A DNA stretch of 32,239 nucleotides from Gammaproteobacteria bacterium (GCA_050485205.1 JBJHAY010000001.1:1-32239), one strand, 5' to 3'; positions 7,757 to 31,583 are shown, numbered from the stretch's first letter. The notes: a model not told the origin generated them from the sequence alone. Translations and numbers: made by a program.

Positions 7757-9964
7757 ATGGAACCGATGAATAAGGCCTTGCTGCCGCAAGCGGTGATCGA
7801 GGATGTCGTGAATGGTGCCCACCAGGATGTATTCGCCGTGCTGGGCATGCATGAGCGGGAGCCTGGATGTCAGCAGGTAAATGTATTCCTGCCGGGTGCG
7901 GTCGAGGTGGTGGTGTTGTCGGCTTCCGGCAAGACCAGCCTGGGCGATCTGAGCATGCTGCATAAGGATGGCCTGTTTTCCGGGCTGATCTCCCGCGCCA
8001 AGCCTGGGCCCTACTCTCTGCGGGTGCGCTATCCCTTGCTGGTCTGTGTCAAGGATGATCCCTACCGCTTTCCTTCCTTGTTGTCCGAGATGGACTGCTA
8101 CCTGTTCTGCAATGGCACCCAGGAGCGGGCCTACCACTTTCTTGGTGCCAACCACAGGGTTTGCGATGGCGTGGAAGGTGTGCTGTTTGCCGTTTGGGCC
8201 CCCAATGCCCGGCGTGTCTCAGTGGTTGGTGACTTCAATCACTGGGATGGCCGTGTTCATGTCATGCGCAAGCATCCTACCTCCGGCATCTGGGAGATAT
8301 TTGTCCCCGGCGTGAATTCCGGGGAAAACTACAAGTTCGAGATCCAGGCCGCCGACGGCACCTTGCTGCCACTCAAGTCAGACCCCTATGCCAAACGCAT
8401 GCAACTGCGGCCTGAGAGCGCTTCCATCGTGCCGTCCAAAACTGCCTACCAATGGCAGGATCAGGCATGGATGAGCGCCCGAGCCAAGGCCAGCCACCAC
8501 CAGGCCGCCATCAGCATCTATGAGGTGCATCTGGGTTCCTGGCGCAGACAAGTGGAGGAGGGTGGGCGTTTTTTGAGTTACCGGGAACTGGCCGAACAGG
8601 TGATTGCCTATGCCAGGGACATGGGCTTTACCCACTTGCAATTGATGCCGGTCAGCGAGTATCCATTCGATGGCTCCTGGGGTTACCAGCCCTTGGGCTT
8701 GTTTGCGCCCACCAGCCGTTTTGGTGAGCCGGATGACCTCAGGTATTTCATTGATCATGCCCATCAGGCGGGGATAGGCATCCTTCTGGATTGGGTACCG
8801 GCACACTTCCCTGGGGATGCCCACGGGCTTGCCTGCTTCGATGGCACTCATCTTTATGAACACGCCGATCCCCGCAAGGGCTTCCACCCGGATTGGAGCA
8901 CCTGCATCTTCAATTACGGCCGCGCCGAAGTAGTGAGCTACCTGATCAGCAATGCTCTGTATTGGCTGGAAGAATTTCATGCCGACGGCCTGCGTTTTGA
9001 TGCCGTGGCTTCCATGCTGTATCTGGATTACAGCAGAAATCATGGAGAGTGGATTCCCAATCACCACGGCGGCAGGGAAAATCTGGAAGCGGTGGATTTG
9101 CTGCGCAACATCAACAATCGAGCCTACTTCAATTATCCAGGCATCATGATGGTGGCGGAGGAATCAACTGCTTGGCCAGGCGTGACCGACTTTACCGAAC
9201 GCGGCGGACTGGGCTTTGGTTTCAAGTGGAATCTGGGGTGGATGAACGACAGTCTCAGTTACATGTCACGGGACCCGGTCCACAGAAAATACCATCACAA
9301 TGAATTGACCTTCGGCCTGCTCTATGCCTTCAGCGAAAACTTCATTCTTCCCCTGAGTCATGACGAAGTGGTGCATGGCAAGCGCTCCCTGCTGGAAAAA
9401 ATGCCGGGGGACGAGTGGCGTCAGTTCGCGAATCTCCGAGCTTATCTCGCTTTCATGTGGACACATCCTGGCAAGAAACTCTTGTTCATGGGGGGTGAGA
9501 TTGCCCAGCGCGCGGAGTGGAATCATGATGCCAGCCTGGACTGGCATCTGTTGGCGGATCCGCGCCACAGAGGCATTCAAAACCTGGTGCGCGATCTCAA
9601 TCGTCTCTATCGCGCCACGCCCGCCCTATATGATACGGATACCAGCCATGATGGATTTCAGTGGGTGGAGGCCGACAATCATGCCTGGTCGGTGTTTGTG
9701 TTCCTGCGCCAGTCAGCGCATGGGGGCTCGCAGGTGCTGGCAGTGGTTAACATGACACCCGAGGTGCACCATGGTTTCAGGATCGGAGTGCCGGGGCCGG
9801 GTTTCTACCGCGAATCCCTCAACACCAATGCCGAGGAATATGCAGGTTCTGGGCTGGGTAACTTTGGCGGCGTGGTGGCGGAACGAGTACGCAGCCATGG
9901 CCATGAATGGTCGATCAATATTTTGGTGCCGCCGTTATCGGCATTGATTTTCGTTCAGGAGTGA
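7757..9964 (+). CDS. glgB: 1,4-alpha-glucan branching enzyme
   Basis: 735-aa ORF with GH13 branching-enzyme hallmarks (WGYQPLGLFAPTSRFG, DGLRFDAVASMLYLDY, MMVAEESTAWPGVT, ILPLSHDEVVHGK). Length matches GlgB. Confidence 0.95.
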   Translation: MEPMNKALLPQAVIEDVVNGAHQDVFAVLGMHEREPGCQQVNVFLPGAVEVVVLSASGKTSLGDLSMLHKDGLFSGLISRAKPGPYSLRVRYPLLVCVKDDPYRFPSLLSEMDCYLFCNGTQERAYHFLGANHRVCDGVEGVLFAVWAPNARRVSVVGDFNHWDGRVHVMRKHPTSGIWEIFVPGVNSGENYKFEIQAADGTLLPLKSDPYAKRMQLRPESASIVPSKTAYQWQDQAWMSARAKASHHQAAISIYEVHLGSWRRQVEEGGRFLSYRELAEQVIAYARDMGFTHLQLMPVSEYPFDGSWGYQPLGLFAPTSRFGEPDDLRYFIDHAHQAGIGILLDWVPAHFPGDAHGLACFDGTHLYEHADPRKGFHPDWSTCIFNYGRAEVVSYLISNALYWLEEFHADGLRFDAVASMLYLDYSRNHGEWIPNHHGGRENLEAVDLLRNINNRAYFNYPGIMMVAEESTAWPGVTDFTERGGLGFGFKWNLGWMNDSLSYMSRDPVHRKYHHNELTFGLLYAFSENFILPLSHDEVVHGKRSLLEKMPGDEWRQFANLRAYLAFMWTHPGKKLLFMGGEIAQRAEWNHDASLDWHLLADPRHRGIQNLVRDLNRLYRATPALYDTDTSHDGFQWVEADNHAWSVFVFLRQSAHGGSQVLAVVNMTPEVHHGFRIGVPGPGFYRESLNTNAEEYAGSGLGNFGGVVAERVRSHGHEWSINILVPPLSALIFVQE

Positions 9965-19166: not shown

Positions 19167-20975
19167 TCAAAACAGCGAGCAGGCGCCATCGGCGGCACTG
19201 CCCAGGTTGGCGCGCATGTTGCCGAAAAGTTCGCGTCCCATGCCCACGTGCTGGTGTGACAGGTCATAATGCGCGGGTGATCGCGCCGCCAATTCCTGAG
19301 GGTCAACCTTCAGTTCCAATATGCCCTCAACTGCATCGAGCAGTATCAGGTCGCCCTCCCGGATGCGGGCAATGGGGCCATTGTCTACCGCTTCCGGAGA
19401 CAGGTGAATGGCCGCCGGGACATTGCCGGAGGCGCCGGACATGCGGCCATCTGTGACCAGGGCAACCCGGTAGCCACGATCCTGCAACACACTGAGGGGC
19501 GGCGTCAGTTTGTGCAACTCAGGCATGCCTCTGGCGCGTGGTCCCTGGAAGCGAACCACTACCACGCAGTCGCGGTCCAGTTCGCCACTGGCGAAAGCCG
19601 CGGCGAGTTCATGCTGATCATCAAACACCACTGCCGGGGCCTCGATCCTCAGGCGGTCAGTCATGACAGAGGAGGTCTTGATCACGGCGGTGCCAAGATT
19701 GCCTTTGAGGACATTGAGACCACCATGATCGTCAAAGGGCTTGGCAATGGGGGCCAGCACAGCCTCGTCACTACTGTGGCTGGGGCCTGCTTGCCAGGTC
19801 AATCCAGTGTCTGAGAGCGTGGGGACCGTGAGATATGGGTCCAGGCCCTTGCCGCAGATGGTATCCACGTCGTGGTGCAGGAGACCGGCGTTCAACAACT
19901 CACGCATCAGCAAGGCCATGCCGCCTGCCGCCTGGAAGTGATTGATGTCGGCTTGGCCATTGGGATAGATGCGAGTCAGCAGGGGTACCAACTCGGAAAG
20001 GGCCGCGAAGTCGTCCCAGGTAATGTGAATGCCCGCCGCTCTTGCCACGGCTATCAGGTGAATGGTGAGATTGGTGGATCCGCCAGTGGCAAGCAGGCCT
20101 ACCATGCCATTGACGATCGAGCGTTCATCTATCATCCGGCCCATGGGCAGGTAGTTCCCTGATTGCTTGGTGAGCCGGGTTACCTGCCTGGCTGCTGCCT
20201 CGGTGAGGGCATCCCGCAGTGGTGTGTTGGGGTTGACGAAGGAGGCACCAGGCAGATGCAGGCCCATCATTTCCACCACCAGTTGATTGGAATTGGCGGT
20301 GCCGTAAAAAGTGCAGGTGCCCGGGGAGTGGTAGGACTGGGCCTCGGCTTCCAGCAGCGCCGCCTTGTCGGCCTTGCCTTCCGCGTGAAGTTTGCGGATG
20401 CGGGCTTTTTCCTTGTTGGGGAGGCCAGAAGGCATGGGGCCGGCAGGCACGAAGACCACTGGCAGATGACCGAAAGCCAGTGCGCCGATCAGCATTCCTG
20501 GCACGATCTTGTCACAGATTCCCAGCATCAGAGCCCCATCGAAAAGATTGTGGCTGAGGGCGACCGCGCTTGCCAGTGCAATGGTGTCACGGCTCATCAG
20601 GCTTAGATCCATGCCTGGCTGGCCTTGGGTGACGCCATCGCACATGGCCGGCACGCCGCCGGCAAACTGGGCCACGCCACCGGTTGCGGCAATGGCACGG
20701 CGGATCAGATCCGGAAAATTCTTGTAGGGTTGATGGGCGGAGAGAATGTCGTTGTAAGCGGAAACAATGGCGATATTGCTGTCGGTCAGGGAACGCAGGC
20801 GGCGCTTGTCAGTTTCCTGGCAGGCGGCGAAGCCATGGGCCAGGTTGCCACAGGAGAGCGCCGCCCGGTGCACGCCCTCGCTGCCCGCGGCATCTATTTT
20901 TTGCAGGTAGGCTGCGCGGCTGGCGCGGCTCCTGTCGATGATGCGCTGGGTGATCGCTTGGATCTTGCTGTGCAT
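19167..20975 (-). CDS. edd: Phosphogluconate dehydratase
   Basis: IlvD/Edd family ([20 protein letters not shown] tail). The ATG at 20975 ([16 protein letters not shown]..) has AGGAGA 7 nt upstream and gives 602 aa. The 671-aa ORF-track version extends into the pgl 3' end and is not credible. Confidence 0.93.
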
Positions 20976-20994
20976 GTGGTGATCTCCTGAGATT

Positions 20995-21705
20995 TCAACG
21001 GGCTGCCCAACAGACTTCCAGGTCCAGACTGGGATGATGCAAAAAAGCACGAACCGGCATTTCCAGTGTGTTGTCACCTTCCAATGCCCTGGCAATAACT
21101 TGCTTCTTGGTTTGTCCGGTGGCATGGAGAAAGACCTTGCGGCTTTGCAATAAAGCCTGCAAGGTGAAACTGATGCGATCATAGGGCGCCGTGGTTGGGC
21201 GTATCCGCATCAGTAGCGCGGGGTTGTCCATGGACATCGCCTGATAGATTTCGTCGGCGCAGGGGAATAAAGATGCGGTATGGCCATCTTCACCAAGACC
21301 CAGCGTGAGAACGTCGAAGGGAAAGGCGTCTGCTTGCAGCAGTCGAATGGATACATCCGCAAGAGAGTCAGCATTGGGTTCACCCTCGGGTCGGATGCTG
21401 TGATAGCGTGCGTCGGCTGCCGGACCTTGCAGCAGTGTATCCCGCAGCATGTGTTCGTTACTGTCTGAAGACTGGATGTCAGTCCAGCGCTCGTCCACCA
21501 GCACCACATTCACCTGCTGCCATGGCAGCTTGTGCGCTGCCAGCTTGATCAGCATTTCACGTGGAGTGCGGCCGCCCGAGACCGCCAGGTTGGCATGTCC
21601 CTTGGTGATGATGGCCTGTTCAAGGGCATGGGCAATGGTTGACGACAAGTAGTCGTCAATGGCACCGCTTGCGGGAAACTCGTGGATTGTCGCGGTCATG
21701 TTCAT
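20995..21705 (-). CDS. pgl: 6-phosphogluconolactonase
   Basis: 236-aa ORF with VSGGRTP, the LVDERW region and [13 protein letters not shown] motifs. The start overlaps the zwf stop (ATGA). Confidence 0.9.
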
Positions 21706-23342: not shown

Positions 23343-26300
23343 TCATTCTGCTCGAAAGCGAAGGTCCAGGGTATAGGGACGTTCGGGATGTGGTGGTTCG
23401 CGCTGAAACACCATGTTGCCCTGCAGATGTCCCATGGCGGCAAAGCGAGCCACGCGGCGTGCCTCGGCTTCGTTGGCATTGACAGGAAAGGTGTCATAGT
23501 TGCGGCCACCGGGGTGGGCCACATGATAGGTACATCCGCCCAATGAGCGCTGGTTGATCATGTCCACCACATCGAAGATGAGAGGCGTGTGAATGTCGAT
23601 GGTGGGATGCAGGGCGGAATAGGGAGCCCATGCCTTGTAACGCACACCACCGACGAACTCGCCCTCTCGGCCGGTAGCTTGCAGTGGAATCAGGCGGCCA
23701 TTGCAGGCAATGGCGAGACGGTTGCCGGTCATGCCCTGAACCTTGACTTGCAATCGCTCCACGGATGAGTCCACGTAACGCGAGGTGCCTTGTCCGCTGC
23801 TTTCCTCGCCAAGCACATGCCAGGGTTCTATGGCATGGTGCAGATCCAGTTGCAGGCCCGCCACATGGACACGGCCAATGTGGGGAAAGCGAAACTCCTG
23901 GAACGGTAAGAGCCAGTCGAGATCGAAGGCGTAGCCAGCCTCATTGAGATCACTTATCACCCAGCGCATGTCTTCCCAGATAAAGTGCGGCAGCATGAAA
24001 CGGTCATGTAATTGACTGCCCCAGCGAACGAAGGGACGTTTATATTCCTGTTTCCAGAACCATGCCACCAGACTGCGGAGCAATAACATCTGTACCGCGC
24101 TCATGCGCCAGTGTGGCGGCATTTCGAAGTTGCGGAACTCCACCAGGCCGAGTCGACCGGTGCTGCTGCCAGGGGCATAGAGCTTGTCGATGCAGAATTC
24201 AGCGCGGTGGGTATTGCCGGTTAGATCCACCAGAAAATTGCGCAGGGTGCGGTCTATCAACCAGGGTTGGGCGGATTCTCCCCGTGGCAGTTGTTGCAGG
24301 GCAATTTCCAGTTCATAAAGGTTGTCGTCTCGGGCCTCATCTACCCTGGGCGCCTGACTGGTGGGGCCAATAAATTGACCGGAGAACAGGTAGGAAAGAC
24401 TGGGATGATTCTGCCAGTAACGGATCATGCTGGCGAGCAAGTCTGGTCTGCGCAGGAAGGGGCTGTTGGCTGGATCCTGGGCACCAAGGGTGACATGGTT
24501 GCCGCCGCCGGTGCCGGTATGCTTGCCGTCGAGCATGAATTTTTCCGTGCCGAGGCGGCACTGACGGGCGTTTTCGTACAGAGGTTCAATGATGCCGAGC
24601 AGTTCATCCCAACTGGATGCGGGATGGACATTGACTTCTATCACGCCGGGGTCCGGTGTGATCATCAGTTTGCGCAGTCTGGAATCCCTGGGTGGTTCAT
24701 AGCCTTCGATGATGATGGCTTGATTCATGCTGGTAGCCACATTCTCCAGTGCGCCGAGCAATGCCAGGTACTGTTCCAGTTGCTTGAGAGGTGGCATGAA
24801 GACATGCAGCTTGTTCTGGCGCACTTCCACGCACAAGGCAGTGTGGATGATCTTGTGAACACTGACTTTTGCAGAAGCCTCAGTGCCTGAAAACCCGGTG
24901 GTGGCGGGGTAGGGTAGTTCCTCCACTTCGGAGAATGGGTCCTTGGGGAAGTCCAGCTCACTGGGATCATCCACTTGCCACGGGAGACTGGCAAGTATCC
25001 CGTATTGTCTCCTTCCGCTGACCAGGACAAAGGCAAGGCAAAACCCACCCGTGCGTTGAGGCCGCGATCGAACACTTTTCGCAGTCGTGCGCGTTCGCGG
25101 GGATCGTCCAGTTTATTGTCGGCAATTTTCACATTCTTGGGTAACTGACTTTCCCGGGTCAGGTAGAAGTCCTGATCTTCGTATCCTGGCACCACATAGC
25201 GGGTTTCCAGCCCCAACTCGGCACACAAGGCCTGCATGAATTGCTCAGCTGTCGCGGCATCGGCGCGGCTGGCGTCATCGGGAGTGGCCAGCAGGGAGGG
25301 GGAATGCCAGAGTGGCTTGGCATCGGTTCTCCAGTAAATTCCCAGAGCCCAGCGTGGCAGTGGTTCACCGGGGTACCACTTGCCTTGTCCATGGTGGATG
25401 AAGCCGCCAGGGGCAAAATGTTGCTTCAGAGCCAGCATCAGTTTCCCGGCGAGTCTGAATTTGTTCTCTCCCAGCGCGCCGGTATTCCACTCAAGGCCGT
25501 CCATGTCATCGATGGAGACAAAGGTCGGTTCTCCACCCATGGTCAAGGCGAGCCCACCGTCCCGCATTTCCTGATCCACTGATTTGCCCAGATCATTGAT
25601 GGATTGCCACTGGGACTCGGTATAGGGTTTGGTGACTCTTGGGTCTTCGTGAATGCGGGTGACCTTGTTGAAGTATTCGAATGTGACTTCAGTAATACTG
25701 GTGGCGCCGGTGATCGCGGCGGCGCTGACCGGATCCGGCGTGCAGGCCAGGGGGATGTGACCTTCGGCCGCGAACAGGCCTGATGTTGGGTCGAGCCCGA
25801 CCCAACCCGCACCAGGAATGAACACTTCAGTCCAGGCATGAAGATCGGTAAAGTCGGCTTCTGGGCCAGAGGGGCCATCAAGGGCCTTGACGTCGGCGGT
25901 CAACTGCACCAGATAGCCCGATACGAAACGCGCCGCCAATCCCAGGTGGCGCAATACTTGCACCATCAGCCAGGCTGAGTCCCGGCATGAACCGGACTTC
26001 AAGGCAAGGGTTTCCTCGCAGCTTTGGACGCCGGCTTCGAGGCGAATCAAATAGGCAACAGACTGTCGCAGTAGTTGGTTGATGTCGACCAGGAAATTGA
26101 TGGTGGGACGTTTGCGTCGATCCACCTGCTTGAGCAATTCCATCAGCAGCGGGCCTTTTTCCTTGATCTGCAGATAAGGCGCGAGGTCCTTGCGCAATTG
26201 CGGCTCGTAGCGAAAGGGAAATCTTTCAAACTTTTCTTCAAGAAAAAAATCGAAGGGATTGATCACCGTCATGTCGGCGATGACCTCAACGTCGAAAATT

Positions 26301-26524
26301 AGTTCTCGGGTTTTTTCCGGGAAGACAAGCCGTGCCAGATAGTTGGAGAATGGGTCTTGTTGCCAATTGATAAAGTGGTTTTCCGGTTGCACCTTGAGCG
26401 AGTAGGATTGGATAGGAGTGCGGCAGTGCGGTGCTGGACGGAGTCTAACGACATGTGGCATGATGGCCGTCAATCTGTCAAAGCGGTAAGCAGTGTGGTG
26501 ATGAATGGCTACCTTGATTGTCAT
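23343..26524 (-). pseudogene. Large transglutaminase-family protein (Bact_transglu_N + transglutaminase core + DUF2126-type C-terminal region), interrupted by a frameshift
   Basis: Two overlapping ORFs in different frames: 24725..26524 (599 aa) and 23343..24974 (543 aa). The N-fragment has a typical start (MTIKVAIHHHTAYRFDR), the catalytic Cys context SGSCRDSAWLMVQVLR and the His/Asp context DLHAWTEVFIPGAGWVGLDPTSG. After about ..LSWSAEGDNTG its translation turns into low-complexity nonsense. The other frame then reads protein-like ILASLPWQVDDPSELDFPKDPF... and continues to the stop at 23343. The frame change maps to about 24980-25005. Confidence 0.8.
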
Positions 26525-26548
26525 GTCCTGTCTCAGTCCTGATACGCT

Positions 26549-27997
26549 ATGAGTATTGATTGGAAATCATACCACCCCGGCGAGTTTTATGACGAGCTAA
26601 TTAGTTCCCCCGGACACCCAAGAAAAATTGCGCGTGTCCTCACCAAGTATCTCTCTTCCCTCTCCCAGGAGGAATTGAAGCATCGCAAGGCATCGGTGGA
26701 ATTGGCCATCAAGGCCATGGGTATTACGTTCACAGTTTATAGCGAGGCCGGCAATATCGATCGCGAGTGGCCTTTCGATATCATTCCCAGAATCATCGCG
26801 GAAAAAGAGTGGCAAGTGGCGAGCAAGGGTTTGGAGCAGCGGCTGCGAGCCCTCAATTGTTTCATCCATGATGTCTACAACAAGGGGCTGATTCTCAAGA
26901 ACAAGGTTGTGCCCAGGGAACTGATTGAGGATTCTGCAAACTTCCGCAGGGAGTGCGTGGGCATGAGCCCGATCCATGAAGTCTGGGCGCATGTCTGTGG
27001 TTCCGATCTTATCCGCGACAAGGATGGGCGTTTCTATGTGCTGGAGGACAATCTTCGGGTTCCCTCTGGCGTGTCCTACATGTTGGAGAATCGCACCATT
27101 ACCAAGCGTGTGTTCCCGGAATTGTTTGAAAACTACGACATCCAGCCAATCACTGAATATCCAGGTCAGTTATTCGACACACTGGCAGCCATCTCGCCAC
27201 GACCGGTGGACTACCCCGAGGTAGTGGTGTTGACGCCGGGTATCTATAACTCGGCTTATTTCGAGCATTCTTTTCTGGCGCAGCAAATGGGTGCTGAACT
27301 GGTTCAGGGCAGTGATCTGGTGGTGGAGGATGACAAGGTTTTCATGAAAACCATCAATGGACTGTCTCCAGTTGATGTGATTTATCGACGTATCGATGAC
27401 CTCTATCTTGATCCCTTGGTTTTCAATCCTGATTCGACCCTGGGTGTTCCTGGTTTGATGCGTGCCTGGCTCAAGGGCAATGTTGGCTTGGCCAACGCAC
27501 CCGGCGCGGGGGTGGCCGATGACAAGGTCATCTATACCTATGTGCCGGCCATGATCAAGTATTATCTGGATGAAGAGCCGATTCTGCCCAATGTGCCCAG
27601 CTACATGTGCATCGACCCCCAGCAATGCAAGCATGTGTTGGCCAATCTGGACAAGTTGGTGGTGAAGCCGGCCAATGAGTCTGGTGGCTACGGCATGTTG
27701 ATGGGTCCCCAGGCCAGCAAGAAGGAACGCGCCGAGTTCGCGAAGAGAATCAAGGCGAACCCCAGAAATTACATGGCACAGCCGCTGATTTCCCTGTCCA
27801 CCTCACCAGTACTGACCGATCGTAGCGTGGAGCCCAGACATGTGGATCTGCGGCCGTTCATTCTGCAAGGGGCCCGCACCCATGTCACCGCGGGTGGACT
27901 GACAAGGGTGGCCATGGTGAAGGGCTCCTACGTGGTGAATTCCTCCCAGGGTGGAGGCAGCAAGGATACCTGGATCGTGTCGGAGGGGAGGCGCTAG
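26549..27997 (+). CDS. Circularly permuted type-2 ATP-grasp protein (putative amidoligase)
   Basis: 482-aa ORF with family-typical blocks (GITFTVYSEAGNIDREWPFDIIPRIIAEKEW, RVPSGVSYMLENR, NAPGAGVADDKVIY, VVKPANESGGYGMLMG, DLRPFIL). It lies immediately upstream of, and is translationally coupled to, an alpha-E gene. Confidence 0.88.
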   Translation: MSIDWKSYHPGEFYDELISSPGHPRKIARVLTKYLSSLSQEELKHRKASVELAIKAMGITFTVYSEAGNIDREWPFDIIPRIIAEKEWQVASKGLEQRLRALNCFIHDVYNKGLILKNKVVPRELIEDSANFRRECVGMSPIHEVWAHVCGSDLIRDKDGRFYVLEDNLRVPSGVSYMLENRTITKRVFPELFENYDIQPITEYPGQLFDTLAAISPRPVDYPEVVVLTPGIYNSAYFEHSFLAQQMGAELVQGSDLVVEDDKVFMKTINGLSPVDVIYRRIDDLYLDPLVFNPDSTLGVPGLMRAWLKGNVGLANAPGAGVADDKVIYTYVPAMIKYYLDEEPILPNVPSYMCIDPQQCKHVLANLDKLVVKPANESGGYGMLMGPQASKKERAEFAKRIKANPRNYMAQPLISLSTSPVLTDRSVEPRHVDLRPFILQGARTHVTAGGLTRVAMVKGSYVVNSSQGGGSKDTWIVSEGRR

Positions 27998-27999
27998 TC

Positions 28000-28959
28000 A
28001 TGTTGTCGAGCGTTGCCGAAAGAATTTACTGGCTTGGACGTTACATCGAGCGAGTCGAAAATACCGCGCGCTTGCTCAATGTCTATTCCGCCATGCTGTT
28101 CGATCTGCCCAGGGGGACTCCTCTTGGGTGGGGGACCTTGATCGATATCATGGGGGTCAATGAGGAGTTTGGGAAAAAGTCAGAAAATTATGATGAGCGG
28201 TCAGTAATACGATATCTGGTGGCTGATGCCACAAACCATTCGTCAATTTTCAGCTCACTCAGATTGGTAAGGGAAAATGCCCGCACCAGTCGTGAAGTGA
28301 TTCCATCCGAAGCATGGGAAAACATCAACGATCTGTATCTCTATGTGAAGGATAATGTGTCACATTGTGGCGCTCGAGGCCGTCGTCATGAAATTCTCAA
28401 TGAGGTGATCAATCATTGTCAGCTGATAGCTGGTCTGTTGTCGGGCACCATGAGCCACAATGTGGCCTATGCCTTTATTCATCTGGGCAGAAAACTTGAG
28501 CGCGCTGACATGACAACCAGAATCGTGGATGTAGGTTCCATCAATTTATTGCCGGGATTTTCCGACAAGAGCAGCCAGAGATCCATCCTGGAGCCATATG
28601 AGAATGTGGTGTGGATGAATATATTGCGTTGTTTGAGCGCCTATCAGGCCTATCGTCAACAAGTTCATAACCGGGTAGGTGGCGAGGAGGTGGTGAAATT
28701 CCTGCTTCAGGATGAGGACTTTCCGCGCTCCATCAGTTTTTGCCTTTCGCAGCTAAGTTTCTTCATTCAGAAGTTACCAGCAAACGACAATGTGCAAAGA
28801 GCCGTGGCGAGAGTGCAGCGCGTCAGCAAAGAAGTGGCTGTCAGCGAGTTGTTGAAGCGTGGCCTGTTGGATTTTATTGATGAGTTGCAGATATCCATTG
28901 CCGATATCCACGAGGAGATCAGTAACAGTTGGTTCAGGCCAGTGGCCCCGGGAGAGTGA
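28000..28959 (+). CDS. Alpha-E domain protein
   Basis: 319-aa ORF. Characteristic ER motifs are AERIYWLGRYIERVENTARLLNV at the N-terminus and HLGRKLERADMTTRIVDV. The ATG lies 2 nt after the ATP-grasp stop. Confidence 0.88.
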   Translation: MLSSVAERIYWLGRYIERVENTARLLNVYSAMLFDLPRGTPLGWGTLIDIMGVNEEFGKKSENYDERSVIRYLVADATNHSSIFSSLRLVRENARTSREVIPSEAWENINDLYLYVKDNVSHCGARGRRHEILNEVINHCQLIAGLLSGTMSHNVAYAFIHLGRKLERADMTTRIVDVGSINLLPGFSDKSSQRSILEPYENVVWMNILRCLSAYQAYRQQVHNRVGGEEVVKFLLQDEDFPRSISFCLSQLSFFIQKLPANDNVQRAVARVQRVSKEVAVSELLKRGLLDFIDELQISIADIHEEISNSWFRPVAPGE

Positions 28960-29019
28960 ACTACCGGATTCAGGCTTGTACCATCAAGGACAGGAAAGTA
29001 CCGGTTTGCCGGAGCGGCT

Positions 29020-29778
29020 TCAGTACACGCCGCTCTTGCTGTCGGATATCTTGTTCCAGCTGGCGGCCCAGGCCAGGGGAGGCAGTTGGTTGAATGCTTC
29101 CTTCAGTCGCCTGTCCCAACTCTTCTTCAATTCCCGCAAGAACTCGCTGTCTTCCTCGAAACGCAGATACGGCTGCAGAACAAAGCTGTTGGCATGGTAG
29201 AGCAGAATTTCGATGGGAGGCCCAACGCTCAGGTTACTCTGCATGGTGGAATCCATGGAGACCAGGGCGCAAAGCGCGGCGGTATCGAGCTCTGTATCAG
29301 GTTTGATGATGCGGTCCAGGATGGGCTTGCCATACTTGCTTTCGCCGATCTGGAGGAAGGGAGTGTCCTTGGAGCTGGTGATGTGGTTGCCTTCCGGGTA
29401 AATCAACACAATGCGGTGATGGTTGTCACCGATCTGCCCACCAAGGATGAAACTGGCTTCAAAGCCAGGGCCCATGGTGCCATGTTTTTCCTGCTGTGAG
29501 CGGCTGATACGGCCCAGATAGTCGGCGGCGTCGCCGATGGTTTCCACTGTCTTCAGGCTTACCTCTGCTTCTTCCCTGAGATCCCGCCGCATTTGGGCAA
29601 TGGAGCCCTGGGTGGTAGCAAGATTGCCAGCCGAGAGCACCACGATTTGGCGATCGGGGCCCAGGTCGAAGCGCGCCATTTTGCTATAGGTGCTGACCTG
29701 ATCAACGCCGGCGTTGGTCCTGGAGTCTGAACAAAACACCATCCCGGCATTCACTGAAATCGCCAAGCAATAAGTCAT
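29020..29778 (-). CDS. Anbu-type proteasome beta-subunit homologue (Ntn-hydrolase peptidase, COG3484-like)
   Basis: 252-aa ORF starting MTYCLAISVNAGMVFCSDSRTNAGVD..YSKM. The nucleophile Thr follows the initiator Met directly (no propeptide). Asp and Lys sit at proteasome-like positions. It is linked to ATP-grasp, alpha-E and transglutaminase genes, as in Anbu loci. Confidence 0.85.
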   Translation of the reverse strand: MTYCLAISVNAGMVFCSDSRTNAGVDQVSTYSKMARFDLGPDRQIVVLSAGNLATTQGSIAQMRRDLREEAEVSLKTVETIGDAADYLGRISRSQQEKHGTMGPGFEASFILGGQIGDNHHRIVLIYPEGNHITSSKDTPFLQIGESKYGKPILDRIIKPDTELDTAALCALVSMDSTMQSNLSVGPPIEILLYHANSFVLQPYLRFEEDSEFLRELKKSWDRRLKEAFNQLPPLAWAASWNKISDSKSGVY

Positions 29779-29908
29779 AAAAGGGAGTTACCTGCTTACA
29801 GGGGAAAAATATCAGCTGTCCATTCACCATTCAGGTGTCATGGGCGAGGGGCAAATACTAGCTCACCGGTCAGTGCCATGCAATTGTGAGTTGGGGCTTT
29901 GCGAATAA

Positions 29909-30472
29909 TCATCGGGGTAACAGGGCTTGCAGCCGCCGGTGAAGTTCCTGATCCATGGGCTTTTCCTGGATTTCATCACTGCCAAGCCCCAGTAATTCAT
30001 GGGGGAAGACCAGCCATTGGTCGCATTCGTGTAAAAAATAGTCAGGTGCCATGCCTGTGAGGTTGTTGCCTGGTTTGTAATAGGGGGTCGCGACCCGTAT
30101 CTCTGGCGGAGTTCCCTGATACAGAGTGTCCAGTTCCGCGAGAATCTGCTTGATGCTGAGCCCGGTGTCGAAGACGTCGTCGATGATCAACAAGGAAGCA
30201 TTTGGGGCCAGATTTTGTCTGATGTAGTCCAGCCCATCGACCTTGACAGTAGTGCGCTTGCCGATACCGCTGTAGGACGATGCCCTGATGGCGACATGGT
30301 CACAGGCAATGCCGGCCAATGCCAGGGTTTCCTGGATGGCGATGGCGATGGGAGCTCCGCCTCTCCAGACTCCTGCCAACAGATCAGGTTTGTAGCCGTT
30401 GTCCAGAATGGAGAGGGCCAGGCGCAGGGAGTCTTCCAGAAGCTGTTGGGCTGAGATATAGGTTTTTTGCAT
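29909..30472 (-). CDS. Phosphoribosyltransferase family protein (xanthine-guanine/purine PRT-like)
   Basis: 187-aa ORF. PRPP-binding loop LLIIDDVFDTGLS. N-terminal layout (..LLAGVWRGGAPIAIAI..) is similar to Gpt-type PRTs. Confidence 0.75.
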   Translation of the reverse strand: MQKTYISAQQLLEDSLRLALSILDNGYKPDLLAGVWRGGAPIAIAIQETLALAGIACDHVAIRASSYSGIGKRTTVKVDGLDYIRQNLAPNASLLIIDDVFDTGLSIKQILAELDTLYQGTPPEIRVATPYYKPGNNLTGMAPDYFLHECDQWLVFPHELLGLGSDEIQEKPMDQELHRRLQALLPR

Positions 30473-30525
30473 CAGAGGGCGGCTTTGGACAGTAGGTGGG
30501 CAGGAACCGCGCCGACATAGTCTGC

Positions 30526-31506
30526 TCAGCGGGTTTCCTGGGTGCTGTCACTTCCCAACAGGCCCAGGGTGACGATGTTGAGCCAGGACCGCTTCTGCTC
30601 TTCAACGGGGACGTTGAAGGCATAGGGAGTATCATTGGCCGCAGGCCTTCTGGTGGGTGCCAGAGGCGCGTCACGCTTGTTGGAGCCCACCAGGCCAAAG
30701 GTCACTGAGTACAGGAAAGAAGGGTCCGTGATCTGGGTGGACACGATGAAGTTGCCGTTGGGGTCCAGGGTGGGACTGTCCGGATAGTTGGCCTTGAGCA
30801 CTGCCAGTGAGGTATCGGCAAGGTCAGTAAGACCCAGCCTGAGGTACATTTCCACCACGATCTCCATGGCCCGCGGGACTGCGGGGGTCCCCTGGTAGTT
30901 TTCCACCACGTAGCGTGCGCGGTTGAGAGAGGACAGGTAGGCCTGGCGTTCGATGTAGAACTCTGCCACGTGCACTTCATAGGCCGCCAGCATGTTCTTG
31001 AGGTAGATCATCCTGGCGCGGGCATCCGGCGCATAGGGACTGTCGGGGTAGCGGGCCAATAATTGCGCGAAATCGGCGAATGCTTCCCTGGCCTTGCCTG
31101 GATCGCGCTTGCTGGGGTCGGTGGGCAGATAACGCCCCAGAAAGCGGGAGTTCTCGGTGTAGAAGGACATGCCCTTCATGTAGTAGGCATAGTCGATATT
31201 GGGATCATCCGGATGCAGGCGGATAAAGCGATCGGCCGCGGCGCGGGCGGCTTCAGGCTCACCGTTCTTGTAGTAGGCATAGACCAGTTCGATCTGGGAT
31301 TGGGCGGCATATTCACCAAATGGAAACTGGGCTTCCAGTTCCTGAAACACGGCGATGGCACGTGGATAGTTGGAAACCTCCAGGGATCTTGAGCCCAGGT
31401 CGTAGAGGAATTCCTCGGTGGAGCCGGCGAACTCGTTTTTGTTGGAGCAGGCGGTGATCGCCAACATGGCCGTCACCAGGAAAAGGCTTCTGAGTTGCAG
31501 GATCAT
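30526..31506 (-). CDS. bamD: Outer membrane protein assembly factor BamD (lipoprotein, TPR-like)
   Basis: Signal peptide with lipobox MILQLRSLFLVTAMLAITAC; BamD/YfiO-type helical repeats; divergent from rluD as in many proteobacteria. The ATG at 31506 is preferred over the ORF-track 31569. It carries a roughly 80-aa C-terminal extension. Confidence 0.88.
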   Translation of the reverse strand: MILQLRSLFLVTAMLAITACSNKNEFAGSTEEFLYDLGSRSLEVSNYPRAIAVFQELEAQFPFGEYAAQSQIELVYAYYKNGEPEAARAAADRFIRLHPDDPNIDYAYYMKGMSFYTENSRFLGRYLPTDPSKRDPGKAREAFADFAQLLARYPDSPYAPDARARMIYLKNMLAAYEVHVAEFYIERQAYLSSLNRARYVVENYQGTPAVPRAMEIVVEMYLRLGLTDLADTSLAVLKANYPDSPTLDPNGNFIVSTQITDPSFLYSVTFGLVGSNKRDAPLAPTRRPAANDTPYAFNVPVEEQKRSWLNIVTLGLLGSDSTQETR

Positions 31507-31583
31507 GGCTTCTCTGTCATTGACTGGTTTTGAATTCAGCGGCGGTGCCCGGGTTTTGCTGTCGGGCATGGCGCGAGCCTGGA

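Follow-up and report, generated by a model that had tools for sequence, protein, structure and literature searches.

A probable lineage-typical Anbu module with a disrupted large transglutaminase-DUF2126 gene in a gammaproteobacterial contig

The window analyzed here is a 32,239-nucleotide stretch of DNA from a Gammaproteobacteria bacterium (GCA_050485205.1 JBJHAY010000001.1:1-32239), and our subject is a locus at positions 23,343 to 29,778 that carries the gene for Anbu, a proteasome beta-like hydrolase. We consider it likely that this locus is the lineage-typical version of the known Anbu module, accompanied by a large transglutaminase-DUF2126 gene that has been disrupted by a deletion of 79 nucleotides. 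A first-pass annotation of the window had described a complete four-gene set in an unusual split arrangement. Its observation is partly confirmed and its interpretation partly supported. Our confidence in the family identifications and in the anatomy of the locus is much higher than our confidence in any mechanism. The genes, gene fragments, and lesion under discussion are as follows.

29020 to 29778, minus strand: Anbu, a proteasome beta-like hydrolase with an N-terminal threonine and no propeptide, 252 amino acids (PDB and Pfam matches, invariant residues).
26549 to 27997, plus strand: circularly permuted type-2 ATP-grasp amidoligase of the COG2308 type, 482 amino acids (Pfam, PDB).
28000 to 28959, plus strand: alpha-E protein of the COG2307 type, 319 amino acids (Pfam).
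24725 to 26524, minus strand: 5' fragment of the large gene, 599 amino acids, with Bact_transglu_N, Transglut_core, and DUF2126 profile positions 3-231 (list of open reading frames, Pfam, alignments).
23343 to 24974, minus strand: 3' fragment of the large gene, 543 amino acids, with DUF2126 profile positions 318-826 (list of open reading frames, Pfam).
24996 to 24997, minus strand: junction of the 79-nucleotide frameshifting deletion (DNA and protein alignments).

Searches with profile hidden Markov models and against the PDB assigned all four proteins to the families that had been named for them (Anbu, ATP-grasp, alpha-E, and transglutaminase with DUF2126), and the open reading frames (ORFs) for the first three lie exactly where the annotation had placed them. 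The ATP-grasp ORF covers the whole of the CP_ATPgrasp_2 profile (positions 1-374 of 374) with an E value of 1.3e-167 and matches PDB entry 3n6x with an E value of 2.1e-154. The alpha-E ORF likewise covers its entire Alpha-E profile (positions 1-294 of 294, E value 1.2e-86), and no solved structure matched this protein in the PDB search. NCBIfam holds no model for the four core proteins. The ATP-grasp and alpha-E genes are adjacent to each other, with the alpha-E start 2 nucleotides after the ATP-grasp stop codon, and the pair is separated from Anbu by a gap of 60 nucleotides.

The PDB matches of the Anbu protein are Anbu entries only (5loy, 5nyw, 5lox, 5nyj, and 5nyf, with E values from 1.5e-67 to 2e-51), and its alignment to the solved chains reaches residues 237-239, including the C-terminal region. 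The Pfam Proteasome profile scores 22.4 bits on this ORF, which is exactly the cut-off value. By these matches the predicted protein groups with Anbu and not with HslV or the 20S beta subunits. Its sequence starts MTYC, and a threonine directly after the initiator methionine agrees with the earlier statement that a propeptide is absent. The PDB chains and the alignments begin at that same threonine (TYC). Residues T2, D18, and K33 are invariant in an alignment of 14 homologues.

The large transglutaminase gene had been read as encoding an intact protein of roughly 1060 amino acids, but it is frameshifted into two ORFs and has lost an invariant motif. Its span on the minus strand, 23343-26524, measures 3182 nucleotides, which is not a multiple of three, and the two ORFs within it lie in different frames. 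When the DNA is aligned with that of six relatives, the window has a single gap of 79 nucleotides at about 24997/24996. The 5' fragment remains homologous to the relatives until about position 24997 and then continues out of frame for about 90 codons. In the protein alignment, the deletion takes out the motif W..W..L.PGDS.G.R.PL, which is invariant in 23 relatives, and the reading frame is regained at 'SLPW', within the second ORF. Neither ORF matches DUF2126 profile positions 232-317 (of 826), and it is inside this stretch that the 79 nucleotides are missing. A real deletion would leave the DUF2126 protein inactive. A glutamine-synthetase-like amidoligase fold for DUF2126 has as its sole support here the Pfam label 'putative amidoligase'. 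Iyer and colleagues are said to have described in 2009 a system in which alpha-E and an Ntn peptidase accompany two permuted enzymes, an ATP-grasp and a glutamine-synthetase-like ligase (DUF2126).

The broken copy exhibits no extra decay. Nonsynonymous divergence (dN) from three outgroups is 0.206, 0.204, and 0.249 for the window, compared with 0.199, 0.206, and 0.247 for the intact gene of the closest relative (L001). This relative, a metagenome-assembled genome of the Pseudomonadales, is 85% identical in Anbu, shares the layout of the window, and encodes an uninterrupted protein of 1086 amino acids. The ratio of nonsynonymous to synonymous divergence (dN/dS) for the large gene is about 0.1, and the window copy contains no further stops. 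Because its dN equals that of the intact relative and stops have not accumulated, the lesion must be either recent or artefactual.

The most serious alternative is that the missing 79 nucleotides reflect an error in the assembly or consensus of the metagenome contig, and that the organism has an intact protein of about 1085 amino acids and a full four-component set that functions as in its relatives. We judge this to be somewhat short of an even chance. The two halves of the gene are otherwise perfectly preserved, as the dN comparison indicates, and the full-length homologues are uninterrupted in 23 of 23 relatives (1072-1143 amino acids). Moreover, a related assembly (L085) carries a scaffold gap of 100 N (positions 7901-8000) in the linker region of the same gene, a few codons downstream of where the window has its deletion, which suggests that this stretch is hard to assemble. 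However, a clean internal deletion of 79 nucleotides is not a typical short-read assembler error, and an exact-match scan of metagenome contigs with a 22-mer beside the junction returned no match, and thus no other or intact allele. The database's own gene call on the source contig is likewise fragmented, at 461 amino acids. The contig index holds no record of the window's Anbu protein.

The layout of the locus is the norm for its Pseudomonadales clade. We used the window proteins to map related loci in a Pseudomonadales set of 82, which consists of 80 genome loci whose Anbu proteins are 59-77% identical to that of the window, the L001 locus, and the window itself. Anbu is convergent with the alpha-E and ATP-grasp genes in about 64 of these, whereas the canonical co-directional four-gene operon occurs in none (0 of 82), so the split layout is not special to the window. 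A full-length transglutaminase-DUF2126 gene is adjacent in 25 loci, where it is divergent from the ATP-grasp gene, lies directly downstream of Anbu, or heads an operon of paralogous ATP-grasp, alpha-E, and small-transglutaminase genes. The exact arrangement of the window is shared by six loci including its own (L001, L004, L019, L044, and L075 are the others) and is also present in L085, which is outside the set. What is peculiar to the window is its losses, namely the absence of a metallopeptidase gene and the broken DUF2126 gene. The annotation had argued that linkage of all four genes is kept across separate transcription units. This stands for Anbu with the ATP-grasp and alpha-E genes, which remain neighbors even though convergent, but is weaker than claimed for the large transglutaminase gene, which is a variable accessory. 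Valas & Bourne 2008 had already noted that Anbu is sometimes located outside the operon yet within the same predicted regulon.

The metallopeptidase gene in question combines Zn_ribbon_DZR_6 and Peptidase_Mx domains and is located between Anbu and alpha-E in 39 of the 82 loci (for example, L007:10716-11771 on the minus strand, and 38 others), where its 3' end usually overlaps that of Anbu by 2-38 nucleotides. Two loci carry a pair of Anbu paralogues within 10 kb that are 52-55% identical to each other (L003:10001-10756 and 19547-20275; L005:10001-10714 and 19217-19972). In both, the large transglutaminase gene comes directly after the conserved copy. The other, divergent copy has SDSRDSLQTD instead of SDSRTNAG and keeps its position after bamD and a phosphoribosyltransferase gene, facing alpha-E.

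The layouts surveyed allow a bolder reading, which we regard as possible but rather unlikely. Anbu in this clade would have its own promoter and would always face the ATP-grasp and alpha-E genes, with an accessory hydrolase slot that is interchangeable and filled by the Zn-ribbon metallopeptidase, the large transglutaminase-DUF2126 protein, both, or neither. The window would then represent a natural minimal state composed of ATP-grasp, alpha-E, and Anbu, and Anbu itself would be the essential hydrolase partner of the ligase.

We find it improbable that the adjacency reflects inherited synteny without functional coupling, such that Anbu would travel with bamD and the phosphoribosyltransferase gene as housekeeping neighbors and the ATP-grasp and alpha-E genes would be independent of it. 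Anbu is indeed on the strand opposite to the ATP-grasp and alpha-E genes, orphan Anbu genes exist (for example, on an Azospirillum plasmid), and eight of the 82 loci have no partner within the retrieved DNA, although some of those contigs are short. However, the linkage holds in about 64 loci while the upstream neighbors change, and it persists despite saturated synonymous divergence and differing flanking genes. The bamD and phosphoribosyltransferase genes occupy this place in one subclade only, and distant taxa have these families in operons, and Pseudomonas putida induces them together.

Least credible, and rejected, is a large gene that is naturally split or recoded, either by programmed frameshifting or because its transglutaminase (N-terminal) and DUF2126 (C-terminal) parts function as separate polypeptides: each ORF does keep strong profile matches (4.7e-90 and 2e-275), the N-terminal one covers the whole Transglut_core profile, and a promoter-like match lies at the junction (24994-24966), but the lesion removes residues invariant in 23 relatives, all of which are intact and none of which is divided at the same point, the two 'short' homologues on long contigs prove to be one scaffold gap and one error-ridden long-read contig with many fragmented genes, and inspection by eye revealed no ribosome-binding site before the GTG at 24974.

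Returning to the lineage-typical module with a disrupted accessory gene, its working core in this organism is probably ATP-grasp, alpha-E, and Anbu. In the literature, the linkage of Anbu with ATP-grasp, alpha-E, and transglutaminase genes is accompanied by the proposal of a peptide-synthesis or peptide-tagging system (PMC5666114; PMC6376114). A third paper also bears on the composition of the operon and on peptide tagging, and predicts that the transglutaminase-like domain reverses the tag (PMC3495828). The Yersinia ATP-grasp protein frees phosphate from ATP (PMC6376114). In Pseudomonas putida, the genes are strongly induced under nitrogen limitation (PMC3235984; PMC8050072), where the log2 fold change reaches 4.44 in the case of PP_2685 and 3.99 in that of PP_2688 (PMC8050072).

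From the protein families and this published context, the circularly permuted ATP-grasp protein together with alpha-E would consume ATP in making an acyl-phosphate and in joining an amino acid or peptide to a protein or small amine. Hydrolases would then reverse or process the bond, or degrade the marked substrate. These would be Anbu, with its threonine nucleophile, and, where present, the transglutaminase-fold cysteine peptidase or the Zn metallopeptidase. Nitrogen limitation would be the probable inducer of the module. The best candidate for a mechanism is that ATP-grasp and alpha-E carry out a ligation, after which Anbu and an accessory peptidase act as hydrolases, and we put it forward only tentatively.

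Several results weigh against our account, in addition to the L085 scaffold gap described above. A scan of the window for sigma-54 promoters returned 32 matches, compared with 26 expected, and none is suitably placed upstream of Anbu or the ATP-grasp gene, so nitrogen regulation is unsupported by the window sequence. DUF2126 has no solved relatives, and the structural model of the C-terminal fragment has a mean predicted local distance difference test score (pLDDT) of 69 and no PDB fold match at E <= 0.001. Elsewhere, no Anbu has been reported to cleave peptides in vitro, and the proteins of the operon gave no sign of forming complexes with one another (PMC6376114), and no function was known as of 2021 (PMC8665760). 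A separate candidate role, in anti-phage defense, was rejected because no PADLOC family matched.

The spacers of the locus, the candidate Anbu promoter, and the genes upstream of Anbu are listed here.

28960 to 29019, no strand: 60-nucleotide spacer between the convergent 3' ends of alpha-E and Anbu, with no recognizable terminator (terminator scan, folding).
26525 to 26548, no strand: 24-nucleotide spacer between the divergent start codons of the ATP-grasp and transglutaminase genes (measured).
29855 to 29883, minus strand: candidate sigma-70 promoter of Anbu, TTGCAT-17 nucleotides-TAGTAT, between the phosphoribosyltransferase gene and Anbu (consensus and conservation).
29909 to 30472, minus strand: purine-type phosphoribosyltransferase, 187 amino acids, directly upstream of Anbu (best PDB match 1vdm, 2.5e-11).
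30526 to 31569, minus strand: bamD, upstream of Anbu on the same strand (this upstream context spans 29909 to 31569).

Three further statements of the annotation are borne out. Anbu and alpha-E are convergent across a gap of 60 nucleotides, in which a scan found no terminator-like site and the predicted folding is not above background (z = -1.1). The transglutaminase gene is divergent from the ATP-grasp gene, and Anbu is co-directional with bamD and the phosphoribosyltransferase gene. The divergent spacer is similarly narrow in relatives (18-29 nucleotides in 13 of 16 loci), and this is so short that both promoters must lie within the neighboring coding sequence. A promoter scan yielded a candidate for the transglutaminase gene, TCGTCA-18-TATGAT, inside the ATP-grasp coding sequence at 26595-26566.

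In the window, as in about 16 related loci, the gene immediately before Anbu is the phosphoribosyltransferase gene. Of 16 loci with this gene, 15 have a -10-like hexamer situated 31-91 nucleotides ahead of the Anbu ATG (0 of 2000 shuffles), as TAGTAT in the window and as TAGAAT, TATAAT, or TATACT in relatives. The intergenic sequence around this box has no evident alignability by eye. The conserved hexamer fits a separate promoter for Anbu, but the three promoters named in the annotation are putative, at the level of consensus sequence.

Downstream of the transglutaminase gene is the series zwf-pgl-edd-glk-eda. The region from 185 to 23195 carries housekeeping genes, including ileS, a beta-CASP RNase gene, a glycogen cluster (malQ, glgB, glgX, glgP, glgC, and glgA), and this Entner-Doudoroff cluster (eda, glk, edd, pgl, and zwf). 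As listed, the edd ORF (19167-21182) has 188 nucleotides in common with pgl, and its true start is therefore probably further downstream.

The window adds little that is new, given that reports of the components and of their association date back to 2008-2009. As comparative by-products, the ligase pair and Anbu stay linked in this clade without being co-directional, and the second hydrolase appears to be one that can be replaced or dispensed with. As test beds, cultured relatives from Pseudohongiella or Cellvibrio would be preferable to an uncultured and possibly defective locus.

The canonical Anbu operon of Pseudomonas, Yersinia bercovieri, and Klebsiella comprises ATP-grasp (COG2308), alpha-E (COG2307), a small transglutaminase (COG1305), and Anbu. 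This order was verified on a Klebsiella plasmid, in agreement with the annotation's description of the usual layout as a single co-directional operon with a small transglutaminase. The window shares the full-length Anbu, ATP-grasp, and alpha-E families, and in both arrangements the ATP-grasp gene is immediately followed by alpha-E. In the canonical operon, however, Anbu is last and co-directional, whereas in the window it is convergent. The window also lacks the small transglutaminase, and the one gene with a transglutaminase fold that it does have, the large DUF2126 fusion, is both divergent and broken. No intact transglutaminase-fold partner was thus found in the window, where the sole candidate is frameshifted, possibly through an assembly artefact.

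A second comparison is with operons that carry the large transglutaminase-DUF2126 gene together with paralogous ATP-grasp, alpha-E, and small transglutaminase genes. These are found beside Anbu in four Cellvibrio loci (L042, L055, L066, and L078) and in Acidithiobacillus caldus, and the Mycobacterium Rv2566-Rv2569c type is presumably similar. They share with the window a protein with Bact_transglu_N, Transglut_core, and DUF2126 near an ATP-grasp/alpha-E pair and Anbu. There, the large gene comes first in a co-directional operon that includes a divergent ATP-grasp gene of its own (34% identity) and a small transglutaminase, whereas the large gene of the window is disrupted and points away from the Anbu-type ATP-grasp gene. 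On the Acidithiobacillus caldus megaplasmid (NZ_CP005987.1, locus L082), Anbu, the large transglutaminase, ATP-grasp, and alpha-E genes are a few kb from glnL-ntrC, a proximity that fits the nitrogen-limitation link reported in Pseudomonas putida.

The third comparison is with the Peptidase_Mx variant of Pseudohongiella-like relatives. Although the window lacks the metallopeptidase gene and has a spacer of 60 nucleotides in place of about 1 kb, the two share the same convergent geometry and have orthologous Anbu, ATP-grasp, and alpha-E genes, with Anbu identities of 59-71%.

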